This document shows, in pieces, positions 6,601 through 59,700 of a DNA stretch of 64,000 nucleotides (position 1 is its first letter; each line of letters starts with the position of its first letter). This DNA comes from Squalus acanthias. Taxonomy: Eukaryota. Below the pieces are notes generated by a model, which worked only from the letters and a program-made list of their open reading frames with translations, did not search any database and was not told the origin of the DNA. A program made the position numbers and the translations under genes. The stretch is taken from contig CM059432.1 of assembly GCA_030390025.1 (NCBI GenBank), positions 87,670,001 through 87,734,000 of the forward strand. Reading direction: 5' to 3'.

Positions 6601-6734
6601 CTCGAAGGCCCGGCTGTAGACTGCACCACCTTGGCATGGGCGGCCGCAGTCTGGGCTGGCTGGATGACACGCAGCAGCAAAGGCAGTGGCAGAGTGGCAG
6701 TGGTGGGAATAGGAATGCTGTCATCCTGAGAGAG

Positions 6735-19471: not shown

Positions 19472-19509
19472 TTTTATTTTTTGCTCTCTTGAAACCTCCC
19501 CCCCACTAA

Positions 19510-25386: not shown

Positions 25387-27835
25387 TGACTCAATGCAAA
25401 AGTCTCTCTTTCTCTCTCTCCGAATCTCTCTCTCTCTCTCAGAACGAGTGGTGCAAAAATGTCAACCACAGAAAAAGACAGGAAGAGGCCCCCTTTAAAT
25501 AGCGCCCCCCCCCAGCCCCACAGCGATTGATAGCGTTCCAGTCTTCCGGTCGTTGGATGCGCCAGGCGGTAAGGCAGGGGTCACCACTCAATTTCCGCTC
25601 CGGGGCGCCACAAGGGCGTTGCACCATGGAATGACGTCACAATCTGCGCGCGCAGGTGGTCGCGGCGGTAAGGTTTAGCGCCGCCGCACAATGTCTAGTT
25701 AAGTTCCCGAGCGGCGCAAACATCGCTGCGCCCGGGCGCTAGCGGCTTTGCGCCCCATTAGCGCCCTCTTAAGGCGCTAACGGGAGGCGCAACCAACTGA
25801 ATTTTTACCCCAGGAAGTCTTACTGCAATTATCTAGGGCTTTAGTGAGACCACACCTGGAGTATTATGTACAGTTTTGGTCTCCTTACCTAAGGAAGGAT
25901 ATACTTGCCATTAGAGGGAGTGCAATGTAGGTTCACTAGGCTGATTCCTGGGATGGGGGGATTGCCCTATGAGTGGAGATTGAGTAGACTAGGCCTATAT
26001 TCCCTTGAGTTTAGAAGAATGAGAGGTGATCTCATTGAAACATATAAAATTCTTAAGGGGCTTGACGGGCTCAATGTTGGGAGGATGTTTCCCCTGGCTG
26101 GGGAGCCTAGAACTAGGGGTCACAGTCTCAGAATAAGGGAACGGCCATTTAGAACTGAGATGAGGAGAAATTTCTTCACTCAAAGGGTTGTGAATGTTTG
26201 GAATTCTCTACCCCAGAGGGCTGTGGAGGCTCAGTCATTGAGTATATTCAAGACAGAGATTGCTAGATTTTTGAATATTAAGGGAATCAAGGGATATGGG
26301 AATAATACAGGAAGGTGGAGTTGAGGTAGAAGATCAGCCATGATCTTATTGAATGTCGGAGCAGGCTCGAAGGGCCGAATGGCCTACTCCTGCTCCTATT
26401 TCATATGTTCTTATTTACCAGTCTCAAACCAGTCTCAGTATTTTAATATCCAATTAACAAACGTCTGAGGATATCTCAATGTCAATGTTAATAACAAATT
26501 GGTTTAAGAGCTTTCGATTTCTGTCTCCATAAAGTGAGATTTTATGAAATTTACAGTTCTGGCACAGAACTTTGCGAAACTTCTTGCCTGAATTTCCAAA
26601 GCATGAAGATCAATGCTGAGAAGGGGAATCTGTAAAATCTACTTTTTAAGGTTCAGTTAGAAAAATATAATAAATGCCTTAGAACAATTATATTGTTGGT
26701 TGAAATAAGGAATTGAGCAGCTTGAAAGAAGAAGGCCAGAAGCCTGTAAAATCATAATTCTGGGTCCTATTTGGAAGCCAGGAAAATCAGGGGATGTAAA
26801 TTTTCCCTTAGTGCATTGAGAGTATGGCAAATGAAAGCTGTCCCCCACCCCCCACCTTTATAGCAGACTTGCTAAACCATGGTACTGAACATAATGCGCT
26901 TTCTTTGAAATTGCATATGTTGGCCCTCGAATTCCATGAGCTGCAGTCTCGATGGTTGCCCTGGGACCCTCTGGTGCTCACCGGCAGTGACCCCCATCGA
27001 GTTTGTGAGGTCAATGGGAGAGTAGTGCATTTTCACTGAGCAAGCAGGTGCAAGTGCTAATTTGGATACTTCTTTTGCACTCACCTGTCCTATTCATTTC
27101 GAAGCTTGAACAGCTGCCGACCGATGGTTGGGTATGGTTGGCCAGGCCTGCCGCCGACCCTGCCACAATTCCAATCTGCCCCTGAACAAGTGGGTCAATC
27201 CTGGAATTCTCTGTTTACAATTTGTCTTTTTCAGGGGTCCAGGCCATTTGTGGGGCTCACATGTGCCATTCTGGAGGCCAATATGCTTCCTCTCTCTTAC
27301 CGTATCAGCCATCACTGATAGCCCAGATCCCTTTCATGACCAGGACTGGGAACCCCGGCTTAGGGAATCCCTAGCCCTGGCCCCGCCCGCAGTCTGTCAA
27401 TTGCCTGGTAAAGGGAGGATGGAAGTTCTGCCTTTTCAAGTCAGTACGGAAACTGGCAGAAATGATGAAAACCAATTGTAACGAGACCTCCACTGCTTCC
27501 CTGAAATTATGGCAAGTGATTAGTAGAATCCCCGTGCAATTTTGGTGTCATTACAACGAACATACAGTTGAGAAGCTAATCAGAAATAATTTGCAGTAAT
27601 GTGTTGAATCACTTGTTAACTATACAAATAGTCATGCGACCCATACAAATTATAAATAGTGGGCACTTCAATCGTAGAGATTATAAATTTGTGTTTGCAA
27701 TGTATTATCACATGGTTTGTCACATGGTTTAGTATGAGCATGCTCAGTTTGCTCTGGCCTAGTAAACAAGCACCTTGACTAACAACTCTTCATGTCTCTG
27801 TCCTTCATTTGTTCTACCCACATATATTAAATTTT

Positions 27836-27855: not shown

Positions 27856-29967
27856 CAAAGCTATTTTTAGGGATCAAGGAAGGACGCAGTGTTCAACCTT
27901 CGAGTGGCAAAGTTTAAGGTGAATTTGTGACAACTAAACTGAATTTTTTGCGATGTTTTACTGTTACTGCTGATGCAGAATTGTCTGTGCTTTGCCTTCG
28001 CGTGTATGTATACACAGCAACAGCACAGGTAGTGTGCTGACTCACTGTTTAATGGGATTGGGCCTACTGGGTTCATCAGAAGCCTCGGCATGTATGACCA
28101 AGCTCGCGAATGATTCAGTTCTTACATTGAGCAGATGGAGATGTTTTTTAAGGGCAATAATATTATTGAGACTGAAGGTTCAAGCTCAAAATAAAGTAAT
28201 TCGTGAACATAAAAAAGCTATTTTTCTAATGGAAATGGGGCCAGATGTCTACAGAACGTTGACAAACCAACTCACACCAGGGAAAGTGAAGGATGCGTCA
28301 TTTGAAGACATTGTTGAGAAACTCGAGGACCATTTCGACCCAAAGCCATTAGAAATAGCAGAGAGCAATAAATTTGGTACCAGAAACCAAAAACAAAGTG
28401 AAACCATCAGTGAGTACATTGTAGCTCTTAAAAACCTGTCTTTGCATTGTAACTTCGGCACATTTTTGGATCGTGCATTGCGAGGTAAGTTTGTGTGTGG
28501 ACTGGTGGATAAGTGCACACAGTCCAAGTTACTGAACACTCTGAACCTAATGTCTGACATCGCATGAAAAATTGCCCTATCTATGGGGATGGTGTCTAAG
28601 AATGCTAGGGAACTCCGTCCAACTCAAGTGACTAGTGCAGCTGAGGTCTACAGTCACAAAGCCACCGCCAAACCTAAAGCTATGAGACCGAGTCAAAAGC
28701 ATGTCGATGAGAGCAGTTCAGTGAATTGTTATCACTGCAATGGAAATCACTCACCACAGTACTGCTAATACAAAAATGTGAAGTGTTTTCACTGCCAGAA
28801 GCAAGGCCATATTTCAACAGCTTGCAGAGCTAGATTGAAAGCAGGAAGTAAGAACCATTCTCGTGGCAATGCAAAGAAGCGACAACAAAAGAGAGGAATT
28901 CACAATATTGAAGTGAACACACCTGATGTTGAAGAACTAGGCATCTATAGTATCTATGCCATTAGCGGCAATGCTAGCAGTCGTGAGAAAGACTTCCGTA
29001 CAAAACTTTTGATCAATGACCAATATATTGATGTGTGTATCGACACAGCGGTGGACTGCTCTATCCTGACTAAGGACACATATGAGTGTAAGTTTAATCA
29101 AATACCACTTACAAAGAGTACCGTAGAGTTAAAAACCTACTCCGGAGAAATCCTAGAGACATGTGGACAAATGGAATGTACAGTTCAACACAATGGCCAG
29201 TCAGTAAAGCTGCCTATTATTGTAGTGAGCTACAACAACAGGCCAACCCTCATGGGCAAAGACTGGTTGAGAAAGTTAAAACTAGACTGGAAAAACATCT
29301 TCAGTGTAGATGCTTCAAAGAAGTGACTCGACACAATGCTGAACAAGTATAAAAGCATGTTCTCAGACAGTTATGAGGGCATCACTGGGTATAACGCGCA
29401 TACCGCATCAAGTCCAATGCGAAGCCTGTCTATTGTAAGGCAAGGCCGGTCCCCTATGCGTTGAAAAGTCAGGTGGAGGAAGAGCTAGAGAAACTGAGAG
29501 AGAACAGAGTGCTGGTAAAAACTGACAAACGTGAATGGGCTACCCAGATTGTGGTAGTGCCCAAAGCAGACAAAACTGAACGCTGGTGTGGTGACTACAA
29601 AGTTACTATCAACCAAGCAGTTGACAATAAGCAGTACCCGTTACCTACATCACAAGATTTGTATGCAGCACTCTCTTGGTCAAAAGTTTTCTCTAAGCTT
29701 GACCTGTCACACGCTTACGCTCAGCTGAATGTTGACAAAGAGAGTCAACAGTATCTCACCATCAACACACACAAGAGACTGTGCTCATACACCAAGCTCC
29801 GTATGGTGTAAAGTCTCCCCCAAAATCTTCCAGGCTACGATGGATAAGATTTTGCAAGTAGTTCCAAATTGCTTATGCAATCAAGACGATGTGCAGATCG
29901 CAACAAGCAGCGAAGAAGAAAATCTAGAAGTGTTAGATTTAGTGCTTTAAAGGTTGAATTCCCACAA

Positions 29968-32127
29968 TTACATAGGATTACATAGGATATACAACACAGA
30001 AACAGGCCATTTGGCCCAACCAGTCTATGCTGGTGTTTATGCTCCACTCGAGCCTCCTCCTGTCTTTCCTTATCTAACTCTATCAGCATAACCCTCTATT
30101 CCCTTCTCTCTCATATGCTTATCTAACTGCCCCTTAAATGCATCTATACTATTCGCTTCAACCACTCCCTGTGGTAGCGAGTTCCACATTCGCACCACTC
30201 TCTGGGTAAAGAAGTTTCTTCTGAATTCCCTATTTGATTTTTTGGTGATTATCTTATTTTGATGGCCTCTAGTTAGGCTCTTCCTCACAAGTGGAAGCAT
30301 TCTCTCTGTATCTACTCTATCAAAACCTTTCATGATTTTAAAGACCTCTATTAGGTCACCCCTCAGCCTTCTCTTTTCAAGAGAACGGAGACCCAGCCTG
30401 TTCATCCTTTCTTGATAGGTATACCCTCGCATTTCTGGTATCATCCTTGTAAATCATCTTTGCACCCTCTCCAGTGCCTCTATATCCTTTATATAAGATG
30501 GCGACCAGAACTGTATGCAGTACTCTAAGTGTGGTCTAACCAAGGTTTAGCATAACTTCACTACTTTTCAATTCTATCCCTCTAGAAATAAACCCTAGTG
30601 CTTGGTTTGCTTTTTTATGGCCTTGTTAAATTGTGTCGATACTTTTAGTGGTTTCTGTATTTTTACTCCTAGATCCCTTTGTTTCTCTACCCCATTTAGA
30701 TTCTTATTTTTCAAGTAATATGTGACCTCCCTATTTTTCTTACCAAAATGTAATACCTCACATTTATCTGTGTTGAATTTTATTTGCCAATTATATGCCC
30801 ATTCTACAAGTTTATTAATGTCCTCTTGTAATTTGTTGCAGTCCTCCTCAGTACTGGCTATCCCCCCCAATTTGGTGTCATCCACAAATTTAGTGGTCCC
30901 AGCACTGATCCTTGTGGAACACCACTTCCCACCTTCTGCCACTCTGAATAGCTACCGCTCTCTGCTTTCTGTCTTGAAGCCAGCTAGCTATCCATTCTGC
31001 TACTTGTCACCTGACTCCACATTCCCTGACTTTCTTCATTAGTCTATTATGTGGTACCTTATCGAAGGCCTTTTGAAAATCTAGATAAATTATATCTACT
31101 GCATTACCCTTATCTACTCTCAGTGTTACCTCTTCAAAAAATTCAATGAGGTTGGTCAAGCAAGACTTTCCCTTTTGAAATCCATGCTGTCTATTTATCA
31201 TTATATTTTTCATTTCTAGATGTTCTTCTATTTTCTCCTTTAGTAGGGATTCCATTATTTTTCCTACCACCGATGTTAAGCTGACTGGCTTATAGTTCCC
31301 TGGACATGTTCTATCTCCCTTCTTAAATATCGGTATTACGTTAGCTATCCACCAGTCCTCTGGCACTACACCTTTTTCTAACGAATTACTAAATATGTGT
31401 AGTAATGCCTCTGCTATTTCTTCCCTAGATTCTTTTAAAATGTGCAGATGTAATCCTTCCAAACCAGCGATTTTAACCTCCTTGAGTTTCATTAGTTTAT
31501 TTTGTATATCTCCTGATTTTATTTTAAATGCAGTTAACTCATTACTAATCTCATCATCTGATGTCATCTCCACTTGTTCTATCTCCCTGGTAAATACTGA
31601 AGCAAAGTAATTATTTAATATCTCTGCCATCTCTCTATTGCTGCCTATGGTATTATCCTCACCATCCCTTAATGGCCCTATTCCCATCCCGACCTTCCTT
31701 TTTTTATTGATGTGCCTATAAAATATTTTACTATTTTGTTTTATGTTCCTTGATAATTTAATTTCAGAGTTCCTCTTTGCCTTCCTAATTGTTTTTTTGA
31801 CTTCTACCTAATCCCTTCATATTCTCCATTATCATGCTCTCCCCTGCTGTCCATGTACTTAATGTATTCCTCTTTCCTTACCCTCAATTTTACCCTTACT
31901 CATCCACGGTGTCTCATTTGTGTTTAGCTTGTTCTTGTTTATTAGCGGAATATATTTTTCTTGGACTCTGTTGAACACCGTCTTAAATGTTTCCCATTGC
32001 TAATCTACATCATTGTTGTCCATTTTATTTTCCCAAGTTCTATTCTCAGCCCCTCAAAATCAGCTTTTCTCCAATCTATTACCCTGATCTTTGTCATACC
32101 TAGGTCCTTCTCAATTATTATCTTAAA
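29968..32127 (-). mobile_element. 5'-truncated CR1 nested in the Gypsy RT
   Basis: Minus-strand RT ORFs 30070-31687; tail near 29970; Gypsy pol resumes near 32128. Confidence 0.92.
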
Positions 32128-35100
32128 ATGTCTCCATGTCGAATTGAAAAGGAACAAATATGCTTTTGTGCAGCCCGAGGTTGCATACCTTGGTCTGAAA
32201 GTTGATGCAAATGGCTTGCAACCAGTGAAGGAAAAGGTTGATGCTGTCATCAATGCTCCAAAGCCACAGAACATGCCTGAGTTAAGATCTTTCCTTGGAA
32301 TGGTCCAGTACTACGCACGTTTCTTACCTGAGTTAGTGACCATGTTAGCTCCATTGCACGAGCTCCTCAAGAAGGATGTCCAGTGGAAGTGGACAAAAGC
32401 GCAACAGGAAGCTTATGACACTTATAAGAGAAGTCTCTCTAGTGATGCTCTACTTGTGCACTACAACACAGAGTGTGAGCTTAAGTTAGCGAGTGATGCT
32501 TCTAGCTATGGTGTGAGAGCTGTCATAAGCCATGTAATGGATGACAGCCAAGAGAAACCAATCGCATTTGCATCGCAGCCCCTCACAAAGAGCGAAAGAA
32601 ACTACACACAAGTTGAAAAGGAAACACTCGCCATAGTGTTTGGAATCAAGAAATTCTAACAGTTCCTAACCGGCAGAAAGTTTACCCTGATAACCGATCA
32701 CAAACCGCTCCTAGCAATATTAGGGCCCAAATCTGCCATCCCTGCAATGGCCGCATCAAGAATGCAACGATGGGCAGTGTTGTTGTCACAATATGACTAC
32801 ACGATTGAATATCGCACTTTAAAGCAAAACGCAATTGCAGATGCCTTGTCCAGGTTGCCACATGAAGACTCGTGTTGGGAGTGAAGGTGAGATTTTCACA
32901 CTAAGTGCGGTTGACAAAGACTTTCCTGTGAATGCAAGTGAGTTTGCAAATGAGACTCAAAAGGACTCAGTACTGAAAAGAGTGTATGAAAACACCTTGA
33001 ATGGATGGACTGATCAGTGTATGGACACAGAGTTGAAACCATTCCATAACCATCATACTGAACTGTCTTGTGAGCAAGGTTGTATCAAGTGGGGAAACAG
33101 AGTGCTAGTACCTACTTCTTTGAGAGATAGAATTCTGGCCGAAACTTCATACTGAACATCCAGGGATCATCAGTATGAAATCAATTGTAAGAAGCTTTGA
33201 TTACTGGCCTGGATTGGACAGTGATCTTGAATCACTTGTCAGCAAATGCAGTGTTTGCCAAAATTGCAGAAACAAACCACTCAAAACTCCACTACAAGCC
33301 TGGTCAGGGCCAAGTAGACCTTTTCAGAGAGTACATGTAGACTTCTGTGAGAAAGCAAATGATTATTTCCTGGTACTTGTAGATAGTCACTCAAAGTGGA
33401 TTGAAGTGAAACACATGGGTTCAAATACTACAACTGAACGTACCATAGATGAGTTGAGGTCTATCTTCGCATGTCATGGCTTACCTGAAGAGCTTGTTTC
33501 TGACAATGGTCCTCAGTTCTGTTCTGCTCTATTCCAAAAATTCATGAAATGGAACGTTATCAAACATATCATCCAGCTTCAAACGGAGCAGCCGAAAGGT
33601 CAGTCAGAATAGTGAAAGGAGCTCTCAAAAAGCAAGTGTTGCAGGGTTGTTTTGGACTCAGCATGAAGCAACATTTGGCAAATTTCTTGCTGACGTACAG
33701 AGCTACTCCGCACACTACAACTGGCTATACCCCAGCAGAACTCTTGATGAAGAGAACATGATTGAGTTTTGTTCAACCAAATTTGGCCTCAAGAGTTGAA
33801 CAGAAACAGTTGAGTCAGAAACGTTATTATGACAGCAATCAGAAAGTACGCAGTTTCAGACAAAATGAGTGTGTTTGTGTTCTCAGTCCCCCCGGCAAGT
33901 CGAGTTCACACAAGTGGGATATAGGAACCATAGTAGAAGTTGGTGCAACCAAGAGATATTTGGTTGAAATTGGTGACAACACCCGAAGTGTTCATGTAGA
34001 TCAAAGGATCTCTGCTAGAGATGAGCCAAGATGTGATCTTGAACCACTTGATGATGAACACATACATGAGTTTGACTCCGTTCAGACTTCAGAAACTGAA
34101 GTTCCAGGTTCAAACAAATCTGAGATAGAAACAGGATCATCTTTGAGTTCGGAACCAGAACAAAACAGCCCGAAAATTGGTTCAACACCAAAACCTTTTG
34201 TAAGATCAGGAAGGCTCCGTAAACCTGTTATTAAACTGGATTTGTAGTTCATTTGTAGCATTTGTAGTTGATTTAAAAGAAAAAAAGCCAGGAGTTTTTG
34301 TTATGTGGTACATGTAATGCTGGGAAAGGTGGGACCATAGTTTTGTTGTATTTGAGAGGAATATGTACATTTTTTTAAAGGGGAAAACAGTGTAATGTAT
34401 TATCACATGGTTTGTCACATGGTTTAGTATGAGCATGGTTTAGTTCACTCTGACCTAGTAAACAAGCACCTTGACTAGCAACTCATCGTGTCTCTGTCCT
34501 TCATTTGTTTTACCCAGATATATGACAGTGTTCATTGAAAAAACAGGGAGATTTTAAAAAGCCTGCTCATTGTTAAAGATTATTGTGGATGATGTAATGA
34601 AGTGTCTGGGTGGAATGCTAACTCATTAATAAATAGCAGTCACAGGAGATGATCTCTTTGTGGGTAAATATCGCATGTGAAAGGAGATCATCATGGAGAT
34701 CATATGCAGGAAGACTGTATGGGCCTGAGGGATACTGAAATTTGTGCAGACGATTTTGTGCAAAGATGGTCGCATACACTTTGCAACACAACATAGGGTA
34801 TCTGTCAATGAAGCAGCAATATGCATAATAATGGCCATATGCTGATCATGTGCCATCGTATTTTTTTAACAGAGGGGCCACTAGCTCAGCAGGAAGAAGA
34901 CAGTTCCATAGGAATGATAAGATACAGGATGGCTGATGGATTGCGAGTGAGGAATTAACAGATTTCAAAGATCAAGGTAGATGGCTGCTAGATGGAAGTC
35001 GAGCATGGTCATTGGCACCTCTGAGCTGTTTTGTGATTCTGATATCAGGGGGCCAGCTACAAAATGAAAGATGTGGGTTCCAGCCCTACTACATAATTTA

Positions 35101-45499: not shown

Positions 45500-47154
45500 T
45501 GTAAGGGGTTCCTGACCCTGCGTGTCTCGCAGCCTGTGAGATTCACGCGGCTCTGTGCAGCCTGTATGTCAGTGCGGGTCTAGGCCTTGTTGCCTGTTCT
45601 GGTCTCCAGCCAGTCTGGGAACACTAGACACACCTGTGAGTGGTTCGAATCACTCTCCCTTACGGTTCTAGACACTGGACTTAGATGCGAGAGCAGTAAT
45701 GGAGATAAAACTCATGTAGACTTGGTTTGAATGGTACGAAATGGAAAATCTTTATTGCATGATACTTAAAATTATGAAATACATGTCATAAGCACAGATT
45801 AATGACAGTACAATCTTACAAACAGTTATATAGTCGATCTTAGGGAAACGAGGAACGAACGGCACAAAGTAAATAGGGGCACACATTACAAATATCCTTA
45901 ATCCTTAAACCCTCCCCTATCAATATCTATCCTAAACTAGATTCGTAGGATTTCGAGACTCATGCTCACCACTCGTGATAACTCGGAGAAATTCCGAATA
46001 GCTGATCGGATGTTTTTCACCGCAGCACCCACGTGTCGGTCAGGAGATCTCCTGGTCCCACTTGTTTACTTGCTTCTGCTGCTCCGGCTAGCAGGCTGGA
46101 CCGTCTGCTGTGATGAAGACCTGTGTTGGTTGGTTTAACAGGTACTCTTCGAGCACAGTTATCGATATCGTCGATACGATATGTTTCCTTGCAAGTTCAA
46201 AGAAGTCTTCCTGGCGAGGAAAACTTGGCTAATCGACCTACAGGCGCGGTCGGGATTTACTGACCGTGGCGATGGATATGGTCTTCCTCTCTTCTCATCT
46301 CATCTCATCTCATCTCGGGCCTTCGGTTCCGCTGCCAGTTACCAACATAGGTCTTCGTTACGCGACACGAGGTAGATCCGAACGGATCAGAAAGTTCAAC
46401 AGTCTTTTCAGAAGAGGCAACAGGCGAGCAGGAGCGAGCCCAGCTACGAGTACACAGGAGCAGCCACGAGGTTACGAATCGACCGGATAAAAGCACAGGA
46501 GCCAGAGAGCAAGAGCAAGAGAGCGAATGGACGGTTTGGAGCCTGCAATTATAGTGCAAAATCTTCCGTTTTCCCGCCCAACTATAATGTCCATTCTTTT
46601 GTTTAGGGTTTGGCGCCCAAATGTCTTGTATGGGTGATCTCCGTTCTTAATGGGTTTCGGGGCTACTCGTAAATGTCTGAGTACCTGTTAATATTTCTCC
46701 CATTGTTAAATCGGTCGGTGTTCTCCCTGGAGGGGTTTGGGGCTTCCAAGTGTCCTGTATAACTACCTGCTAACGGCTCTCTCATCGTAGAGTCGTTGGG
46801 ATTTTACATATTAATGTCTTTTGGATGGGCCCTTGATTACTCGGTACAATGGCTTTCCTTTGTACCTGGGAGACCGATTTCAGTATCTATGTTTATACTG
46901 CAAACCCATAATGTCTCGTGTATTATCTTCACTGTGCTGAATCTTAATCGATCTTGCACAAATGTTTATTGGAACGCCATCTTGTCTGCCTGTTGAAAAG
47001 TCTAGAATGTTCTGTCACGAGGTGCGGCGGCCATTTTACAGGCTGCTTGTGTCCACTTTAAACCTGCCAGCATTCTGCTGAAATAAAAGCTGTTTGAACG
47101 AAACTCTGTGTTTTCTCCTTATTAACAAAATCGCGATATATTGCGAATTCTACA
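45500..47154 (-). repeat. 3' LTR (1655 bp)
   Basis: Direct repeat of 56615-58269 (offset 11115). Confidence 0.98.
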
Positions 47155-47167
47155 GTCCCTCCTGTTG
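47155..47167 (-). promoter_or_regulatory. Polypurine tract
   Basis: AACAGGAGGGAC immediately before the 3' LTR on the minus strand. Confidence 0.65.
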
Positions 47168-47607: not shown

Positions 47608-50142
47608 TTACACGATGCTTTCGTCGTGCACGCGCACGTAACGTTCTCGCCACTCTCCCGTGTTTTCATGCTTGGTGAGGCGTTTGTCTCTTTTACAATG
47701 TACGACCAATAGGTACACTACAATAAACACTTGGCATACGACTAAAATGTGGGAGGCTATTCTGATCCATGAAGGCACTTCAATATTAGTGAACAGATTC
47801 CACCACGGTGGAACTACTATATCCAGAATGTCTGTTCCTATTTCGACAGTTTTCTGCTCTAATGTGTAAAAGTGTTTCTGTGACACCGCGACGGCTTTTA
47901 AAAGCTTGGTGAGGTGTTCAGGGAGAGGGGGAATGAGGTATCCAAAATGCGTGACGAATCGCTGCAAGTCGGTGAAATTCTCTTTTACTGTGAGATGAAC
48001 AGTGGATGGTTCAGGGATTGGGATAATTCGCTGTTGTGCTACTTGAACTTCCGCCCTGGGTTTAAAACAGAAACTGCTGTCACTCACCGGACACCGGCTA
48101 CGGTTTCCATGCTGGTAGTGTTGCGCTGCAGTGGTAACACAATATGTTCCACCCCCGATGTATGCTACCTGCGGAGGCACATGATCTTGTGCCATTGCCT
48201 CCATGGTGCAATTCATGGACTTGGCGCCAGTCGTTCTGAACCCGCACTGTGGTGTTAAAAAGGCATTCAAGTGCTGGGGGCACAGTATTATGTGTGCTCC
48301 CCTGCCACGACAACCAGAGAGATCTGTACCTGTCATCGTTTGCTCCCAGCGGATGACGTAAGGTGGAACCGCTGCATAACGAATGTGGGCTCCCCCCTGA
48401 ATGACACCAATGTTCTCTACCCGATATACCGGGGCGGGCTTTGCTGTGTCGCCCAAAACCGGCATGCATAAAACTATACCCATAATGGTATGGTTTGATC
48501 GTCCGCAGTCCACGGGGACTGGGTATGCTTCTGAAGCTAGCCTGAGCTGGCACGGGCTCAATGCGTTCTGAAAAGGGTGGAGCGCCCGTAGGTGTTTGTT
48601 ACTTATCCAGGACGGAACCAAACCTTGTTTTAAATCCTCCAAATTACTGCGGCCCTCGCCCAGTAACCACGCCCCGTAAAGCACGCACACCTCGTTCTGC
48701 ACAGCTTGATCGGATGCATTCCGATCTTCCCTAATCAGGGCATTTACCGTCTTTGCATGTTTCTCCAACTCTGCTATAATTTCCTTTAAATGGAGGGTCA
48801 TGGCTTGGTCCTCGTGTAGACCTGACCCTACCACTTTATTCTCATCTGTTAGAATGTCTTTTAATTGTGTCTTTAAACCATTAATCTGGGTCTGCAGCTC
48901 CACACTGTCTAGAGCGTTGACCACAGATGTACCCGTGTTAAAAGCAGTGAACGCATCGTTCACCAAACCCCTTCTTTGCCTCCCTACTTGATCCAAAACT
49001 TCCTGTGGTGCGGTGTACAAACTTGTTTTATCAATTTCCGCGAAATCGAATTCGTAAAATTGCCTGAACATCTTGGTCAACAGGACCTGGTACAACTGTT
49101 CCGTCTTTTTGGGGCACCACTCTGGTAACCGCACCTCAGTGAGATTTAAAATCACCGAGGCCACCGCGTAATGTACCCCCTGAAATAGTATCTGGTCTGT
49201 GGGGACCAGTACCAAACCATTCCCGGGTCCCTTACTAGTTTTAGGGCACCCTTCTTCCTCAGCTAGAACCACCGGAATCGTGGGCGGGGCTTTGCGTGGG
49301 CGCGTAATGAGCTCAGTGGCATTTACTGGGATCGGGGAGAATGGGGCTCCGCACCCCCTGGTGCTCGCATCCCACCTCATCCCCTGTCCGTTATCCTGCC
49401 ATTGATTAATAAAAAATATGGAGATGCCTTTGGGGCAAACGTACTTTGACCCCCACATACATACATAAATTCCCTCATCCGGTTCCCACCATTTGTCCCA
49501 ACAGACTTTCACTTGTCCGTCTGTCCCCGTAATTGTCCGATGGGTATTATTACCCAGTCGTTCCCACTCGACCGAAGAGTTCCTCATAGTTTTGCTCAGC
49601 TTTCGCAGCCACCACCATCGGCTCAATGGGACCTTCCCACTACAAGTCAAACAAATCCGTTTGCCGACGGTGACGCTGATCCTGGGTGCGATGATCCTTA
49701 CTTTGGGGCACAGTAAAGAAGTCTCTTGGTAGGCAAACCCCGACGTGCTGGAATACTCCGTTGAGTTCGTTCCCAGCCATCCTGGCCACCTTCCCTTGTG
49801 GAAATAGGTGCTGGTCTCCTCTGCCTTCCGTCTTCCGGTCCCATCCACCGCGATGGGGGCCGTGTCCCCGGAACATCCAAACACCACGACATCCTTGGTG
49901 CGGCCTCGATAGGCCAATCCACATCCGATTGCCACGAGCAATACTAGAATTCGTTCCATCCTTCCTTGGTTCCTGTGATCAGATAGAATGAGGTAGCCAG
50001 CCTCGCAAGAGTCTCTGGCTTTTGTGAAGGGTGAGCGGGTCCCCTGACCTCGCCTCACGTAAACTTCAACGTTCGCTGAATAAACTTCAACTAAACCTAT
50101 CTTTAAAGCTCCCATCATTTTATCGTTTTCTGTTAAAAACAC
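47608..50142 (-). CDS. env: Envelope/class I fusion glycoprotein; likely start at 49959 (MERILVLL...)
   Basis: Signal peptide, Ig-like domain, RQRR furin site, fusion peptide plus heptad repeat, Cys-rich ectodomain, C-terminal TM and basic tail. Confidence 0.88.
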   Translation of the reverse strand: MFLTENDKMMGALKIGLVEVYSANVEVYVRRGQGTRSPFTKARDSCEAGYLILSDHRNQGRMERILVLLVAIGCGLAYRGRTKDVVVFGCSGDTAPIAVDGTGRRKAEETSTYFHKGRWPGWLGTNSTEYSSTSGFAYQETSLLCPKVRIIAPRISVTVGKRICLTCSGKVPLSRWWWLRKLSKTMRNSSVEWERLGNNTHRTITGTDGQVKVCWDKWWEPDEGIYVCMWGSKYVCPKGISIFFINQWQDNGQGMRWDASTRGCGAPFSPIPVNATELITRPRKAPPTIPVVLAEEEGCPKTSKGPGNGLVLVPTDQILFQGVHYAVASVILNLTEVRLPEWCPKKTEQLYQVLLTKMFRQFYEFDFAEIDKTSLYTAPQEVLDQVGRQRRGLVNDAFTAFNTGTSVVNALDSVELQTQINGLKTQLKDILTDENKVVGSGLHEDQAMTLHLKEIIAELEKHAKTVNALIREDRNASDQAVQNEVCVLYGAWLLGEGRSNLEDLKQGLVPSWISNKHLRALHPFQNALSPCQLRLASEAYPVPVDCGRSNHTIMGIVLCMPVLGDTAKPAPVYRVENIGVIQGGAHIRYAAVPPYVIRWEQTMTGTDLSGCRGRGAHIILCPQHLNAFLTPQCGFRTTGAKSMNCTMEAMAQDHVPPQVAYIGGGTYCVTTAAQHYQHGNRSRCPVSDSSFCFKPRAEVQVAQQRIIPIPEPSTVHLTVKENFTDLQRFVTHFGYLIPPLPEHLTKLLKAVAVSQKHFYTLEQKTVEIGTDILDIVVPPWWNLFTNIEVPSWIRIASHILVVCQVFIVVYLLVVHCKRDKRLTKHENTGEWRERYVRVHDESIV

Positions 50143-50145
50143 TAC

Positions 50146-50230
50146 AAACTTAACCTTGAACTATAAACTTAAAACTTAACCTTGAACTATAAACTTAAAA
50201 CTTAACCTTGAACTATAAACTTAAAACTTA
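50146..50230. repeat. 26-bp tandem repeat (x3.3) between pol and env
   Basis: Unit aaacttaaccttgaactataaactta. Confidence 0.95.
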
Positions 50231-50274
50231 CAACTTCTTACTATACAGTGCCGCCCGTTCTCAGGGCGGCCCCT

Positions 50275-53200
50275 TTAAATTCTGAGAAGGCTGCTGCGAG
50301 CTCTTCCCGACGGTGGGAGGGCACTGACCCTTCCCTCTGATCTGCCGCAGCCTGTTGCTGCGCTGACCCTTCCCTCTGATCTGCCGCAGCCTGTTACTGC
50401 TGCGATGTGGCCGGTCTGTACCCGGGTTATCTTAACCTGAATTTTACGCCTTGGGGCAGTCTGGGGACATGACCACATCCTCCTGGGCTGGGGTTCTCTA
50501 CTTGACCTACGGGGAGTTGCTATGGGCGGGGGTTCCGTGACGGACGGACCGGGTTCCGAGACCTCCATCGGGATGACCTGGGGTTCCATCACAGTCGCCG
50601 GCTCCGCCTCCGCTGACTCCGCCTCCCTAACCTCGGGGCTGGCAGTTCGTGGCTCCGCCCTGCTCGGCCCAGCAGGCGGGCCTTCACTCGTGATCTCTGC
50701 CTCCCCTGAGGACTGGACGTTCAAAGCGGGCGGCCACATCTCTGGGAGCCACACCGGTACTCTCTGTGCTCCTATAGCGGCTGGCCCTGCCTCCTCTAGC
50801 TCCTCCCTCCTGTCCTCGGGACCTGCAGCTTGTGTGTCCACCCTGTGTGGATCTCTACCTACAGCCCCCATTCCCTCCAGACCGTTCCTCAGGAACCACC
50901 CGTCATCATCACTATGCTCATCTGCACTATCCTCATCTGACCAGGGTACCCTGAGTTCTTCCTCATCTAACCCCCAATTCCAGAAAAACGCTGCGTGATC
51001 GTCCGGGATGTCCCTTCCCCTGATGCAAGCTGCTATGCCTGCCTGTGTGCCTTGTGGTCCTACCTGGGGCTGTGCTTTCCCATTGGCGGGATTTACCCCT
51101 GTAGTTTTCCCCTGCGCACCCGGCTGGTACAGTTTGCATTGGTTTATGTGGAACCACTTAGTGCGCCGAGGTACTTTTACGGCGTAAACCATGGGACTCG
51201 CCTTGTCTACAATGTTGTAGGGTCCCATATACAGTGGTTCCAGACTCCCTACTCTGGCGTAGTTTCTGACCATGACCTGGTCTCCTACTTCCCACTCCCG
51301 CGTTTTGCGGGGTTCCAGCAACAAGCGATTGCCCTGATGCTGCCTTCCCATGTTCCCAGCCGCCTGCTCATAAACTTGCTTCAGGCGCTCCAAGAGAGTC
51401 TGGGCGAACTTGTCCCTGCTTATCTCTTGGAGCTGACCCTCAGTGAGCACCGGTGCTAGCACATGGGTGGGGGTTCGCCTGAGCCTCCCAGTCATTACCT
51501 CGTGCGGGGAGTACCCCGTACTTTTTGACTGGCTGGCCCGGACCCCCATGAGGACTAAAGGCAGAACTTCCGCCCATTTTTGGGGCGAGTTCCTAGTCTC
51601 TTTCCTCAATTTCTCCTTCAGGGTCCGGTTCATACGTTCAACAATCCCGGATGACTGGGGATTGTGTGCTACGTGCCACTTCCCTTCAATGCCCAAAAGC
51701 ATGAGGGTGTTCTGCATCACCTGGCCGGTGAAATGACTTCCTTGGTCTGACTCCACAAAACGGGGAAGTCCCCACCGCGAGAACACTTCCCGGACCAAGA
51801 TTTTTGCTGTACCCAGTGCCGTAGCTGTTCGACAAGGGAAGGCTTCCACCCACTTGGAAAACACATCCACCAGGACGAGGCAGTACTTATAACCCCCCTG
51901 GGTGGTGGGCAGGGGTCCTATATAGTCGATCTGTATCGACTGCCATGGTCCCTCTACCCGTCTTACGTGTCCCATGGGCACCTTCCTTTTCTGGGGGTCT
52001 GGGTTGTTTGCAGCGCACACAAGGCAGTTTGCGCAGAACTCGCGGACTTGTTCCCTGAGCCCTGGCCACCATCCCGCTTGCTCTACCCGTTGCCAGGTAA
52101 CCTCGGGCCCGGGGTGCCCTGCCCCTGGTCCCTCGTGAGCCAACTGGAGGAATTCCCTCCTGTGCTGCTGCGGCACAACCCACTGCTCCTCGCGGAACAG
52201 CATGCCTTCCTTAACTGAGAGGGTTGCCGTACTGTACGGACCTTCTACCTGCCTCCCCTCAGCAATCGTTTTTAGGACTGCTTTTAGGGCGGGATCCTGG
52301 GCTTGGACGGTCTTAAGGTCTAGGGGCAATGCTACCCTGGGGTTCCCGGGATTCCCGTCCCCGCCTCGGACCGCTGCTATGGGTCCGGTCCTATAGGGGT
52401 TCCAGAAAGTGCCGTCGCGGGCACCCTCCCTGGCTAGCGCATCCGCCTGCCGGTTGCCCTCCCCACGGGGCTCTGTGGAGGAGTGAGCTTTCACCTTATG
52501 GATGAAAATCTCTCCTTCCTCCCCTACTGCTGCAGCTAAGATCTTTTCCAGCAAGGGCTTCACCGTTAAAGGTCGCCCGTCCGCGGAGGTGTATCCGCGG
52601 CGGGACCAAATGGCCAGGTATTCCGTACACGAATTGCAGGTGAACATACTGTCCGAGCAAATCGTGTATGGGGTTGGGAAAATGTCTGGGTGGGTCACAA
52701 CGTACACCACGGCAGACAGCTCAGCCTGCTGCGCGCTCATGGTGCTAGGGAGCTTGATCGCCAGGGCAAGGTCTGCCGCAGGGTCATAAACTCCACACCC
52801 TGTGAGTCGCTCGCCAGCAGACACTGTGCTAGACCCATCAACATAAATCTCGCGCCCAGTGGGATGTATCCCGGCCCGTAAACCTATGTTGACGTCCCAC
52901 ACCCCTTCCACCGAACACCGGTGGGCTGTACCGGGGTATACCAAATTGGCCGCAAGCCTGGGCTCGCAAAGACCTTTTACTCTAAGATCCAACTGGGAGA
53001 GAAGAAGGGTCCAACGCGCAATGCGTGCGCTGCTTACGGTCCCGTCTTTAATCCTCCCATCCAGAAGCATCTTAGTTGGTGTGTGATGTGTGAGGAGAGT
53101 GATGGGAGAGAGCCCTGTGAAGATCGCTGATCTTTTCACAGCCCAATGCGTGGCTAAAAGGTGCCTTTCGCAATTGGAGAAACTTCTCTCCACATCCGTT

Positions 53201-54798
53201 AATACCCTGGATGAATAGACAACCGGCCTCAGCTTGCCGTGACGCTCTTGGAGCAGCACGGCGCTTAAGCTGTCTCCGCTGGCAGCTACCTCCAGGAAAA
53301 ACTCCTTCCCCCCATCTATGGCCCCTAAGGCTGGCGCGGTCTGCAGATCCCTCTTTAACTTCTCGAAGGCTGCTTGGCAGCCCTCGTCCCAAAACCACTC
53401 CACCCCCTTATGGAGGAGTCGGAGGAGCGGCGCCGCTGTGGCCGCATAATCTTCGATAAAATCCCTGCAGTAACCGGTCAGTCCCAAGAAGGACCTCACA
53501 CCCCTCACGTTGTTGGGAATCGGTAATTCTTGCACCGACTCCCTCCTTGCTTTGTCTATGGCTCTTTCCCCAGCGCGTATGGTCAGTCCCAGGAATTTTA
53601 CTTCCCGCTGACCGATACGTGCTTTCTTAGGGTTTATTTTAAAACCCTTTCTCGCTAACAGCTCCAATAACTCGTCCAGCAGTGGTCCGTGCTCCTCCCT
53701 TGAGTCCGTAAATAGGAGCAAATCATCCACATACTGTACTATCTGATTGGGCTGACTAAACTCCTTTAAACTTCCTGCCATACACTGATGAAAAATACTG
53801 GGGCTATTGTGGAAACCCTGTGGCAGACAGTTCCACGTGTACTGTTGCCCTTTGAAAGTAAAAGCAAACTTGTACTGGTCCTCTCGCCGCAGCGGGATGG
53901 ACCAAAAACCGTTCGAGATATCCAGCACCGTGAACGTGGTCGCGGACGCTGGGATGCTCCCTATTAGGTCAGCAACTGCTGCTACTGTGGGCGCGCAGGC
54001 GGGAATGTTACTGTTAAGGACTCTGTAGTCCACCGTGGCTCTCCACGAATTATCCGGCTTCCTAACCGGCCATAATGGGGAGTTCACGTGTGTGGCTATC
54101 GGCCTCAACACGCCCTGCTGCACCAAGGAAGACATTGCTGTCTCCATATCTGATTCTGCTTCTTTGGGGAAGTTATACTGCTTTTGGGGTCGGGTCATGG
54201 GGTCCCCATCTACGCTGACCTCAAACCCGACCACTCTCCCACAATCGTGCTTGTGGGTTGCAAACGCGTGCATATTATCTGACACGTACGTTTGCATGTC
54301 CGTTGGGACATCTGCGACCATAAGCCTGAGGTCGTAGCCTCCGGATGGCTGTACGGTACACAGGACCCCTGTTTCTTCCTCCCCCGGAATCACTATTACC
54401 TCGCCTTTTTCACCTTTAGCTCCCCAGAGACAGTGATTTCTGAGGTCCACGAGGATCCCGTGTCCCGCTAGGAGATCGGACCCGAGAATACCTCTTCCAC
54501 CCCCCTTTTGCCATGCCATCAGTATACACTTCCACTTAAGGCGAAGTGTTCCTAAACGAATGGATAGCGGAAGGGAAAACGTGCCAGCCTGTTCTTTTCC
54601 TGTGAACCCTGCTAACGTGAATGGGACCTTGGTAGATAGCGGCGAGTCAAAAGGGTTATCTGTATGGATTATGGTGCAAGAAGCTCCCGTGTCCAACAAA
54701 TAACTACCCTTCTGTTTCTCTACCTCCATCTCCACCACAGGTCGCCTCCACGCATCATAGCTAAGCGGACACAGGTAGACGGGCTGTGCTGGTTCTAG
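50275..54798 (-). CDS. pol: Pol: protease, RT, tether, RNase H, integrase, long C-terminal extension
   Basis: LLDTGAS; LPQGF and YVDD; YVDGSS...SAQQAEL...SDS...HKVKAH...GNRQAD; HHCC, IDYIGP, SDQGSHF, VERMN, GPY; frame is open from the gag stop. Confidence 0.96.
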   Translation of the reverse strand, partial: LEPAQPVYLCPLSYDAWRRPVVEMEVEKQKGSYLLDTGASCTIIHTDNPFDSPLSTKVPFTLAGFTGKEQAGTFSLPLSIRLGTLRLKWKCILMAWQKGGGRGILGSDLLAGHGILVDLRNHCLWGAKGEKGEVIVIPGEEETGVLCTVQPSGGYDLRLMVADVPTDMQTYVSDNMHAFATHKHDCGRVVGFEVSVDGDPMTRPQKQYNFPKEAESDMETAMSSLVQQGVLRPIATHVNSPLWPVRKPDNSWRATVDYRVLNSNIPACAPTVAAVADLIGSIPASATTFTVLDISNGFWSIPLRREDQYKFAFTFKGQQYTWNCLPQGFHNSPSIFHQCMAGSLKEFSQPNQIVQYVDDLLLFTDSREEHGPLLDELLELLARKGFKINPKKARIGQREVKFLGLTIRAGERAIDKARRESVQELPIPNNVRGVRSFLGLTGYCRDFIEDYAATAAPLLRLLHKGVEWFWDEGCQAAFEKLKRDLQTAPALGAIDGGKEFFLEVAASGDSLSAVLLQERHGKLRPVVYSSRVLTDVERSFSNCERHLLATHWAVKRSAIFTGLSPITLLTHHTPTKMLLDGRIKDGTVSSARIARWTLLLSQLDLRVKGLCEPRLAANLVYPGTAHRCSVEGVWDVNIGLRAGIHPTGREIYVDGSSTVSAGERLTGCGVYDPAADLALAIKLPSTMSAQQAELSAVVYVVTHPDIFPTPYTICSDSMFTCNSCTEYLAIWSRRGYTSADGRPLTVKPLLEKILAAAVGEEGEIFIHKVKAHSSTEPRGEGNRQADALAREGARDGTFWNPYRTGPIAAVRGGDGNPGNPRVALPLDLKTVQAQDPALKAVLKTIAEGRQVEGPYSTATLSVKEGMLFREEQWVVPQQHRREFLQLAHEGPGAGHPGPEVTWQRVEQAGWWPGLREQVREFCANCLVCAANNPDPQKRKVPMGHVRRVEGPWQSIQIDYIGPLPTTQGGYKYCLVLVDVFSKWVEAFPCRTATALGTAKILVREVFSRWGLPRFVESDQGSHFTGQVMQNTLMLLGIEGKWHVAHNPQSSGIVERMNRTLKEKLRKETRNSPQKWAEVLPLVLMGVRASQSKSTGYSPHEVMTGRLRRTPTHVLAPVLTEGQLQEISRDKFAQTLLERLKQVYEQAAGNMGRQHQGNRLLLEPRKTREWEVGDQVMVRNYARVGSLEPLYMGPYNIVDKASPMVYAVKVPRRTKWFHINQCKLYQPGAQGKTTGVNPANGKAQPQVGPQGTQAGIAACIRGRDIPDDHAAFFWNWGLDEEELRVPWSDEDSADEHSDDDGWFLRNGLEGMGAVGRDPHRVDTQAAGPEDRREELEEAGPAAIGAQRVPVWLPEMWPPALNVQSSGEAEITSEGPPAGPSRAEPRTASPEVREAESAEAEPATVMEPQVIPMEVSEPGPSVTEPPPIATPRRSSREPQPRRMWSCPQTAPRRKIQVKITRVQTGHIAAVTGCGRSEGRVSAATGCGRSEGRVSALPPSGRARSSLLRI

Positions 54799-56610
54799 TC
54801 ATGGGGTACTATTAGACGGTCCTGCGGCACCTACGGGGCCGGTTGCGACCGCCACCTGTCCACGCGCATTCAAGACCAGCTTGCGCATGGCTCCTAACAC
54901 TGCTTCGAGGTCGTCGGGAGGGGTGGGTGCCTTGGCTTCCTTAGCCGGGACAGGCGCCTGGGCTCGGACCGCGGGATTTTTATCCTTGGAATCCTTCCAA
55001 GGGTTCCTGCAATGCTTGCGCCAGTGCCCTGTCTTCCCACACCCGTAACAAGCATTACTTGCCTGTGGGGCGCGATTACCCTCCTGATGCCACTCTCTTT
55101 GATACGGGGCTGCGGGTCGTACCTCATGTACTCTTCCCTTAAGGGGACGTGTTGCCATACCCCTTATATTGCGATAACCTAACGTGAGTCGATTCAAGAC
55201 CGACTCTTCCGTAATGTTGGGGTCATTGGGATCAAACCATGCTTTTGCCTGCTCTCTGACGGCTGGTAAACTGTTGGCTATTATGCACCTAAGCCAATGA
55301 GTTAAAGCTAAACCTTCCACATCTTCGCGCTCGGGCGCACCTAGACAGCTGCGCTCATATACTGGCCACAGCCTGTCGGCAAAAACCTTCGGGGGTTCTC
55401 CCTCCATCTGCACTGTCTGTCCCACTCTAGCAAACGGACCTTCGTCGTTCGCCCCCAACACTTCTAGGACCTCATTCTTTAATTCCTCATAACTCTTGGT
55501 TCCCCTCTTGCTCTCGCCTGAGAGACACTGAAGGACCGAGCTGTCTAATGAGAACAGCAGCATTTTTGCTGTCTCCCCATCATCGCAGCCGTTAATGGCT
55601 GCGGCTTGCTCAACTTCTCTGAAATGTACGGAAGGGTCGTCTACCTCGGTCAGCTTCCGTACGTGATTTATCATAGCTCTCAGCTGATGTGAACTGTGAG
55701 GCAACACCAGCTGTCCGAGGAGATCCCCCGGTTCTTCCCCACCGTTTCTGCTTGGGCCCCTTTTAATACCCGTTACTGGATACAACGATCCCTTTTCTAC
55801 TTCCTTTTCAATGGGCTCTTTTGTTTCTTCCATTGCTTCCTCCCTAACCCAGGTTTCTGAATAGCTGGGTGGCGCGGAGGGCGCAGTGGCTACTACTTCT
55901 TCTGCTTTACTTGGTGGGGATTTTCTAAATCTCTCATTTACTAGCGGCTGGTGCGCCGACGGATTGATAAGGCACACCATGCCGTTCGCATTGTTCACGG
56001 CCTTTTTGAGGTGCTCTATCTCCCTTTGGCAGGCGCTATGATCGGCTCCCTGAAACTTATCCTCAAGGGCCAACTTATATGCCGCCCTAACCCCCATCAA
56101 GCTTTCTTCTTGAGTTCTTATCTGGGCAGCTTGGCGGTTACATCTTTCCTTTAACCTGCTCTCATTCAATTTTGCCTCAGTGACCTGGCACTCGAGATAA
56201 TCTATCCTTGTTTTAAGGTGACTGGAGACTTCCTGGCTTTCTTGGTGTAACTCATTTAAATTCTTAATGAGCACCTCCCCTCCAGAAACCTTCTCCTCCA
56301 TTTCTCCCTCTAAATGACTGATTCGAGCTACTAGCGCTGTAATGGTCTGGTTTGAAATCTGAACCTGCCTTTTGTAACACATAAGCCAGACTGCTTTCTC
56401 AAGTGTCTTTCTATGTTCTTTACTATCTGTCCACCTTTCAGCTGCCTCTAGTGGGCTCTTATCCGCTAACAATTCACTTATCCATTTCTTAGTTAGATTA
56501 ACCTTTCCAAACACATAATCCGCTATCTTTTCCTGCATAACATTTCGTACAGTCATTCCAAAATCTAACACACTACCCTCTCGCTGCCAGTGTCCTGCCG
56601 CGGTCGCCAT
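54799..56610 (-). CDS. gag: Gag, 603 aa
   Basis: ATG at 56610; N-terminal coiled coil; PSAPPSY; CCHC knuckle CYGCGKTGHWRKHC at 55009-55050. Confidence 0.92.
   Translation of the reverse strand: MATAAGHWQREGSVLDFGMTVRNVMQEKIADYVFGKVNLTKKWISELLADKSPLEAAERWTDSKEHRKTLEKAVWLMCYKRQVQISNQTITALVARISHLEGEMEEKVSGGEVLIKNLNELHQESQEVSSHLKTRIDYLECQVTEAKLNESRLKERCNRQAAQIRTQEESLMGVRAAYKLALEDKFQGADHSACQREIEHLKKAVNNANGMVCLINPSAHQPLVNERFRKSPPSKAEEVVATAPSAPPSYSETWVREEAMEETKEPIEKEVEKGSLYPVTGIKRGPSRNGGEEPGDLLGQLVLPHSSHQLRAMINHVRKLTEVDDPSVHFREVEQAAAINGCDDGETAKMLLFSLDSSVLQCLSGESKRGTKSYEELKNEVLEVLGANDEGPFARVGQTVQMEGEPPKVFADRLWPVYERSCLGAPEREDVEGLALTHWLRCIIANSLPAVREQAKAWFDPNDPNITEESVLNRLTLGYRNIRGMATRPLKGRVHEVRPAAPYQREWHQEGNRAPQASNACYGCGKTGHWRKHCRNPWKDSKDKNPAVRAQAPVPAKEAKAPTPPDDLEAVLGAMRKLVLNARGQVAVATGPVGAAGPSNSTP
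56592..56609 (-). promoter_or_regulatory. Primer-binding site, tRNA-Ser-like
   Basis: TGGCGACCGCGGCAGGAC starts 5 nt after the 5' LTR; partial match to the tRNA-Ser complement TGGCGTAGTCGGCAGGAT (recalled, not searched). Confidence 0.65.
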
Positions 56611-56614
56611 TTTC

Positions 56615-58269
56615 TGTAAGGGATTCCTGACCCTGCGTGTCTCGCAGCCTGTGAGATTCACGCGGCTCTGTGCAGCCTGTATGTCAGTGCGGGTCTAGGC
56701 CTTGTTGCCTGTTCTGGTCTCCAGCCAGTCTGGGAACACTAGACACACCTGTGAGTGGTTCGAATCACTCTCCCTTACGGTTCTAGACACTGGACTTAGA
56801 TGCGAGAGCAGTAATGGAGATAAAACTCATGTAGACTTGGTTTGAATGGTACGAAATGGAAAATCTTTATTGCATGATACTTAAAATTATGAAATACATG
56901 TCATAAGCACAGATTAATGACAGTACAATCTTACAAACAGTTATATAGTCGATCTTAGGGAAACGAGGAACGAACGGCACAAAGTAAATAGGGGCACACA
57001 TTACAAATATCCTTAATCCTTAAACCCTCCCCTATCAATATCTATCCTAAACTAGATTCGTAGGATTTCGAGACTCATGCTCACCACTCGTGATAACTCG
57101 GAGAAATTCCGAATAGCTGATCGGATGTTTTTCACCGCAGCACCCACGTGTCGGTCAGGAGATCTCCTGGTCCCACTTGTTTACTTGCTTCTGCTGCTCC
57201 GGCTAGCAGGCTGGACCGTCTGCTGTGATGAAGACCTGTGTTGGTTGGTTTAACAGGTACTCTTCGAGCACAGTTATCGATATCGTCGATACGATATGTT
57301 TCCTTGCAAGTTCAAAGAAGTCTTCCTGGCGAGGAAAACTTGGCTAATCGACCTACAGGCGCGGTCGGGATTTACTGACCGTGGCGATGGATATGGTCTT
57401 CCTCTCTTCTCATCTCATCTCATCTCATCTCGGGCCTTCGGTTCCGCTGCCAGTTACCAACATAGGTCTTCGTTACGCGACACGAGGTAGATCCGAACGG
57501 ATCAGAAAGTTCAACAGTCTTTTCAGAAGAGGCAACAGGCGAGCAGGAGCGAGCCCAGCTACGAGTACACAGGAGCAGCCACGAGGTTACGAATCGACCG
57601 GATAAAAGCACAGGAGCCAGAGAGCAAGAGCAAGAGAGCGAATGGACGGTTTGGAGCCTGCAATTATAGTGCAAAATCTTCCGTTTTCCCGCCCAACTAT
57701 AATGTCCATTCTTTTGTTTAGGGTTTGGCGCCCAAATGTCTTGTATGGGTGATCTCCGTTCTTAATGGGTTTCGGGGCTACTCGTAAATGTCTGAGTACC
57801 TGTTAATATTTCTCCCATTGTTAAATCGGTCGGTGTTCTCCCTGGAGGGGTTTGGGGCTTCCAAGTGTCCTGTATAACTACCTGCTAACGGCTCTCTCAT
57901 CGTAGAGTCGTTGGGATTTTACATATTAATGTCTTTTGGATGGGCCCTTGATTACTCGGTACAATGGCTTTCCTTTGTACCTGGGAGACCGATTTCAGTA
58001 TCTATGTTTATACTGCAAACCCATAATGTCTCGTGTATTATCTTCACTGTGCTGAATCTTAATCGATCTTGCACAAATGTTTATTGGAACGCCATCTTGT
58101 CTGCCTGTTGAAAAGTCTAGAATGTTCTGTCACGAGGTGCGGCGGCCATTTTACAGGCTGCTTGTGTCCACTTTAAACCTGCCAGCATTCTGCTGAAATA
58201 AAAGCTGTTTGAACGAAACTCTGTGTTTTCTCCTTATTAACAAAATCGCGATATATTGCGAATTCTACA
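56615..58269 (-). repeat. 5' LTR (1655 bp)
   Basis: Direct repeat of 45500-47154; TATAA near 57664-57668 and AATAAA at 56866-56871 on the minus strand. Confidence 0.98.
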
Positions 58270-59700
58270 GCTGCCATGACTCTTACATCCTGCGCCAGTC
58301 CACAGTCCCTCAGCTCTTCACACCGCCAAACGAATTTTCCGGCTGGCTCCTTGGAGACAAGGGCTATCCCCTGAAGACGTGGCTAATGACACTGTTGAGG
58401 AAGTCCTCAAACGAGTCTGAGGAGCGCTACAATCAAAGCCACATTTCCACCCGATCTCTCATAGAGCAAACAATAGGGTTGCTCAAAATGTGCTTCAGAT
58501 GCCTGGACAGATCTGGTGGAGCCCTTCAGTATGCACCAGCCAGGGTGTCCAGAATCGTCATTGTCTGCTGCACCCTGCACAACATTGCACTGCAGCGAGA
58601 ATTAGCGTTGCCTGAGGAACAAGTGGCAGAGTGCACAGCCTCTTCAGAGGAGAAGGAGGAGGAGGAGGAGGAGGATGAGCAGAATGAGGGTCAGCAAGAG
58701 GAAGACCTGGAGAAGGTGGCTGCCCCAGTGTGACCAGCTCGCGAGCACATTGCTGCCTGTGATGCCAGGGATGGCCTAATCATTGCCAGATTCACATAAC
58801 TTTATGCAGCACACACATGTGGCTGCCGCATACACATGAAGGATGGCATTACCACACTGCCACACCATAGAGCATCTGTATAATGAACTGTTCAATCGTT
58901 GCACTGTCACCACCATTGCTGGAAAATAAAGGCACCCTTACCCAAACTTGATGGGCCGAATGGCCTCCTTCTGTGCCGTTATGACTCTATATGACTCTTT
59001 GGCCCTTGTCTGCGCCACCTCAATTTGTGATCATACATATGGCAACCACATCAATCATTCACAATACATTACTTTATTACAACAAAATAAAAGAATTGAG
59101 ACTTAGCATTCATTTATAGGAAAATACCCAAGTGACTATCCTAGTGCCTATTTATGTGTGAGCTTTCTTTTACGTGTGCTTGTACGAGGTGCTACCCCTG
59201 TGGCTTCACCAGATGTAGAGGCAGGCTGCTCACTTCCCTGCTGCGCCTGCTTAGACACCTTTGGCGGTCGTCCTCTGGGTTTTGGAGCCTTTGAGGGCCC
59301 CGCCAAAGTCTGCTCTTCCTGCAGCTGTGCAGGGGCAGACTCGGCTATCACTGTTCAGGGAGGCATATGGGGATCTGACCGAGGGGTTGGCAAAGAGGAG
59401 GAAGTTGGAGCACTTGAAGAGGAGCCCCCACTTCCATGTCCCCTCCAACCATCATCCCTCTCATGGGCCACCCGCACTTCTCTACTAGCAAGTAGCTGGA
59501 GAGCACCTTGCTGCACATCAGTGGGGCCATGAGGACCCATGTCTATATTGACATTCCTCATAACAAGGACGTCTATGAACCTCTGGTTTCTCTCCTCAAT
59601 AGATGCCCATCTATTTAGAAGTGTTACCATGTTCTCCTGAGTCTAGCGACTTATGTCCTCCATGGAGGTGGCCATCCTTTCCATGGCAGAAGCTACAGTT

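Follow-up and report, generated by a model that had tools for sequence, protein, structure and literature searches.

Immunoglobulin (Ig)-like receptor-binding domains (RBDs) of retroviruses, the exchange of such domains and one host capture are already described, as are envelope (Env) proteins of the F type in lokiretroviruses and foamy viruses. In gamma-type Env (MLV, FeLV and Env-Pb1), an N-terminal RBD with a modified Ig variable (IgV) fold is followed by a proline-rich region; these RBDs have been exchanged between lineages, and one represents the capture of a SIRP-derived host IgV domain (bioRxiv 10.1101/2024.03.17.585361). The foamy virus Env is an F scaffold with its own receptor module, and its RBD is an internal insertion of non-Ig fold (PMC11468914). 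In this study, we analyzed 64,000 nucleotides of the Squalus acanthias genome (assembly GCA_030390025.1, contig CM059432.1, positions 87,670,001 to 87,734,000; hereafter the window), which contain an endogenous retrovirus (ERV) with an Env frame of 850 codons on the minus strand (47608-50160), downstream of the gag and pol frames. Reported here are a probable Ig-like head on an F-type Env, a pattern of head swapping, and a reverse transcriptase (RT) test against the lokiretroviruses.

Similar to gamma-type RBD-C, the window Env has an N-terminal Ig-like domain and a proline-rich link to the remainder of the protein. However, the carrier there is a gamma- or alpha-type Env, whereas the window domain sits on an unrelated F-type core; RBD-C has no disulfide between strands B and F, whereas both canonical cysteines are present in the window domain; and the SIRP-like RBD has a clear donor, whereas none was found for the window domain. 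The bioRxiv report contains 0 occurrences of "shark" or "paramyxo". The foamy virus Env is also an F scaffold carrying an extra module, but the module of the window Env is N-terminal, as in the coronavirus spike, and Ig-like. The window element shares an F-like Env, an RxKR-type site, a fusion peptide, a transmembrane (TM) segment and a dual RNase H pol with the lokiretroviruses, although an N-terminal module is lacking in all three of the lokiretrovirus Env entries examined, out of 23 listed, and lokiretrovirus elements occurred in 0 of 6 cartilaginous-fish genomes (PMC7947760). ERVs resembling snakehead retrovirus (SnRV) are known from a chimaera, according to the SnRV-like and clade Huo literature (PMC4422223, PMC6001957, PMC4977317, PMC12193657). 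In the openly readable literature, with subscription papers and Repbase outside the search, we came across neither a retroviral F-type Env described as bearing an Ig domain nor a report of an F-type Env in the SnRV-like grade. The original prediction had called such a domain not typical of retroviral Env; this is too broad in view of the gamma-type RBDs, but it holds for F-type Env in the literature searched.

A probable Ig-like head on an F-type core

The Ig-pattern motifs predicted at 49450..49705 are real. The minus-strand frame 49450-49704 corresponds to Env aa 86-170 (aa 1 being the first residue of MERILV, at 49959) and contains in frame ISVTVGKRICLTC (aa 94-106, with C106), WWWLRK (aa 115-120, with W115-117) and DEGIYVC (aa 161-167, with C167). 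These B, C and F motifs stand at the canonical V/I-set spacing, with 61 residues between the two cysteines, and are kept across the family. A strict LxC..W..DxGxYxC pattern, which was composed after the sequence had been seen, arose by chance 16 times when aa 17-236 were shuffled 200,000 times and 3 times in 50,000 shuffles of full-length Env. Strand G, predicted as the last, lies at aa ~178-187 (to ~49400), just beyond the 49450 boundary; the probable V/I-set-like core extends over aa 84-186 (49402..49710, minus strand), with C106 in strand B, W117 in strand C, D161-x-G-x-Y-x-C167 in strand F, and further cysteines at 84, 103, 153 and 175.

The scores for this assignment are all below threshold. 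The Pfam Ig_3 match to Env scored 15.6 bits (E=0.024), where the cut-off requires 30; the best family member reached E=0.0085 with Pfam Ig, short of the curated cut-off; and CRTAM, the best solved-structure match by sequence (E=0.005), is below significance. A single-sequence AlphaFold model was uninformative (pLDDT 36). A fold search of BFVD returned nothing at E<=0.001, its weak rows including a poxvirus IL-18-binding protein. A profile built from untrimmed alignment rows had no Ig match in the PDB. Only the window head was folded by the model, and Ig calls on other heads refer to motifs and weak Pfam scores. Taken as a predicted structure, aa 84-186 probably adopts an Ig-like beta-sandwich of a strongly diverged IgV/I-set type, as proposed, at sub-threshold scores.

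The remainder of the protein, on the same strand, surrounds this domain. The Env start and a predicted signal peptide (49912..49959; hydrophobic stretch at aa 1-16, with homologues beginning likewise) are followed by a conserved head segment, aa 17-83 (49711..49911), with an invariant R-x-P-G and an N-S-T/S sequon. Model confidence is low over most of this segment, and the aligned model range begins at residue 16; one edge strand in the modeled sandwich may come from part of the segment. The end of the head and a Pro/Thr-rich linker occupy 49249..49401, with PRKAPPTIP at 49299 (aa 221), and comparable linkers precede the core in P0011, P0022 and P0187. The domain was correctly positioned between signal peptide and linker, but ~65 conserved residues separate the signal peptide from the Ig core, and the G strand runs past the boundary first given. 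Four N-glycosylation sequons (aa 65, 127, 137 and 213) and eight cysteines are found in aa 17-237.

The downstream core, aa 238-720 (47800..49248), contains an RQRR cleavage motif (48970-48981) and then a putative fusion peptide, and a TM helix predicted from hydropathy at aa ~734-754 (47698..47760) precedes a short tail and the stop codon at 47608-47610. In the ESM Atlas the core was assigned to Baculo_F (0.95) and Fusion_gly (0.93), with a recognition score under the tool's threshold, and a 20-row family profile of the core matched the foamy virus Env structure 8rm1 (also 8rm0) with E=2.6e-4. Judged by its sequence homology to paramyxovirus, pneumovirus and baculovirus F and to foamy virus Env, together with the furin site, fusion peptide and TM helix, the Env core is an F-type (class Ib-like) fusogen. 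Membership in the gamma-type Env proteins was rejected, because the core is F-type and Env had no Pfam match to the gamma-type surface/transmembrane (TLV coat) families at E<=10.

Retroviral placement and the modular head slot

The F-like Env first suggested a lokiretrovirus, a reading ruled out by an RT motif and by the RT tree. The F-like Env and the dual RNase H, both lokiretrovirus features, are present here, but they are common to other lineages and therefore not diagnostic. The motif NSPAEF, with 42 occurrences in the available published lokiretrovirus RT rows (QGFHN, 0), is absent from the window RT. By eye, P0093 and P0103 match those rows, and P0088 matches the published SnRV row. The window RT lies on the retrovirus side, split from P0093 and P0103 by a 100/99 branch; in the careful tree of 26 rows, from which P0110 was dropped by a length filter, forcing it into the lokiretrovirus clade, which is sister to all retroviruses, was rejected (p-AU 0.001). 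In a quick tree (117 of 120 matches), the window RT, again on the retrovirus side, fell near P0088 within a 14-row group (SH-aLRT 81). This grouping is absent from the 26-row tree, in which NYNRIN-like Pols of amphibians and coelacanth stand closest to the window RT. The RT sequences suggest that the element is a basal retrovirus of the SnRV-like grade, its closer clade being weakly placed.

The Env of a viral contig matching SnRV (L027) has a core that aligns to the window family (hhalign probability 86.8, E=4e-6) and an N-terminal Ig-like motif (V-set E=0.095), although it is longer (a 1134-aa frame) and homology between the two heads is unsupported (hhalign probability 3%). The primer site of the window element also differs from that of SnRV. 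The L027 Env (6131-9535), with its apparent F-type core, two furin-like sites and Ig-like N-terminal motif, had no description in the literature searched.

We surveyed the slot between signal peptide and core in 51 Env relatives, compared by Env protein rather than by pol linkage. The Ig-type head of the window is conserved across shark and ray families, occurring in P0001, P0002, P0004, P0009, P0016, P0026 and P0187 and in older families of the same genome; among the named relatives, those of skate, sawshark and whale shark are closest. Another Ig-like head occurs in the bamboo shark protein P0012 (UniRef name "Ig-like domain-containing"), which is related to L024 of the dogfish genome, and a third type is common to two frogs (P0018 and P0047). 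The head of P0034 is V-set-like without the canonical cysteines, and its weak PDB matches include CEACAM and SLAM-family domains. In contrast to these Ig-like types, the head of P0011 and P0022 is a Cys-rich module lacking any Ig motif, and P0035 and P0046 have no head. In a 12-row core tree, the window family is sister to the Cys-rich-head cores (100/100), and P0034 is sister to the headless P0035 (99/100). Heads of different types did not align to each other (window head to others, at most 3.6 bits). These sequence comparisons indicate that the head slot is modular: sister cores carry different heads or none. Smooth-hound and sawshark relatives (P0011, P0022 and P0030) carry a Cys-rich head of unassigned fold in that slot. 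In the gene models of P0002, P0007 and P0038, pieces of Env are fused with host exons (zinc-finger, F-box or others); these are probably annotation artefacts or exonised pieces of long terminal repeat (LTR) elements.

Role and origin of the head

We favor, with some reserve, the reading that the IgV/I-set-like domain in front of this F-type Env is an exchangeable receptor-binding head. An F-type fusogen otherwise lacks such a head, which a retrovirus must have if it makes just one glycoprotein, and a head on a proline-rich linker is the gamma-type RBD layout; the receptor binding originally proposed is thus plausible as an inferred role. Under this model, furin would cut at RQRR and leave the head on the N-terminal subunit, at the periphery of the trimer, where it would bind a host surface protein, plausibly Ig to Ig as nectin/CADM-type domains do. 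Recombination at the linker would exchange heads between lineages.

It is unlikely that the head is instead an immune decoy or modulator that imitates, on particles and infected cells, an adhesion or inhibitory ligand of the host, with attachment left to the F core or to glycans. Viral Ig-domain immunomodulators are common, headless F-type Env proteins exist, and CRTAM is an IgSF (Ig superfamily) protein of T and NK cells; but the match to CRTAM is both weak and generic, the covalent position on the fusogen mirrors known RBDs, and a slot that also accepts a non-Ig Cys-rich module better fits attachment than Ig mimicry. A structural or shielding cap, which would stabilize the prefusion trimer or hide the core without a specific ligand, is less probable again: the sequons and cysteines of aa 17-237 and the strong conservation within the family agree with it, but sister lineages replace the head by unrelated modules and some are headless. 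Least probable is a superficial resemblance, in which a beta-rich viral domain without IgSF descent would have gained the motif by convergence, because the properly spaced motifs are rare by chance and five methods agree on Ig and on nothing else, even though every score is sub-threshold, no donor was found and heads of different lineages fail to align.

For the receptor-binding head, the ultimate source would likely be a host IgSF gene, too old to trace. Our donor searches spanned part of the host IgSF. There was no significant host match in the PDB; the 5.8-billion word-indexed search returned 6 matches, all from the Env family; and host Ig frames at 30 of the 150 listed Ig_3 loci of the dogfish genome yielded no donor (best E=0.2). 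In the own-genome scan, more than 5 bits were reached by 2 of 27 Ig-motif peptides and by 3 of 315 others. No host IgSF protein was significant in these searches, and the captured host domain originally proposed is plausible as a capture in deep time.

A wider reading is possible, and we advance it tentatively. The basal aquatic retroviruses (the ERVs of sharks, rays and frogs, together with exogenous snakehead retrovirus) may constitute an unrecognised Env class, with an F-type fusogen and an N-terminal plug-in slot, that repeatedly and independently took up different host IgSF domains as attachment heads, of nectin/CRTAM-like type in the window element and of CD2/SLAM/CEACAM-like type in P0034. 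Such Env proteins would have converged on the gamma-type combination of Ig head and proline-rich linker on a non-homologous scaffold. If so, F-type Env would reach beyond foamy viruses and lokiretroviruses into the basal SnRV-like grade, that group, whose cell entry is unstudied, would gain a candidate receptor-binding module, and two unrelated retroviral Env scaffolds would have arrived at one modular design.

The provirus and its copies

The element lies on the minus strand between a 5′ LTR (56615..58270) and a 3′ LTR (45500..47155), each of 1656 bp with TG...CA ends and 99.94% identical to each other. CAGC is present at both outer ends and is likely a 4-bp target duplication. The primer-binding site (56592..56609) is complementary to the 3′ end of the host tRNA-Arg(UCG). 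Genes for this tRNA occur in a large tandem array (1.6-kb unit) on C26 at ~39-42 Mb; the tRNA pattern has 424 matches genome-wide. The gag frame (54799..56610) has a coiled-coil-like N-terminal stretch and a weak CCHC knuckle. Its first ATG (56610) overlaps the primer site 4 bases past the LTR, leaving hardly any leader (56592-56614), and the reading frame stays open upstream into the LTR end. The pol (50275..54798), in frame past the gag stop, encodes protease, RT, tether, RNase H and integrase, the RNase H after the tether being the second. An AT-rich tandem repeat (50130-50240), whose length differs between copies, separates pol and env.

We searched the 3.7-Gb genome with the 102-aa Ig region. 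Because all 150 scored matches, drawn from 5447 first-look candidates that include older families too, were 100% identical, the family is a very young, large expansion, and because it is still so young the Ig-like domain is not a decayed relic. Among 10 copies sampled through env matches, which leaves env-less copies outside the sample, 5 (L040, L041, L043, L046 and L049) share a deletion of most of pol (51146-54767) and keep gag and env, 4 are full length and 1 is differently rearranged. Some of the pol-deleted copies lie in ~7.75-kb tandem arrays with shared LTRs. The genome also contains one or more additional F-type Env families akin to P0012 (L021-L026; 83 matches), mostly decayed; L024 has a LINE fragment between integrase and env.

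The family or its close kin is present in several related species or labels: 62-83% of words sampled from 49250-49960 occurred in 14 public runs (7 studies, 6 organism labels), none of those listed being recorded as RNA. Contigs from three public runs span the whole stretch and indicate presence only. Elsewhere in the window, 4750-6324, 16213-20475, 24139-25461 and 27974-34247 contain ordinary repeats that, judged by motif, are putative frames of CR1-like LINEs and of a Harbinger-like transposase, together with a putative Gypsy-like element in decay.
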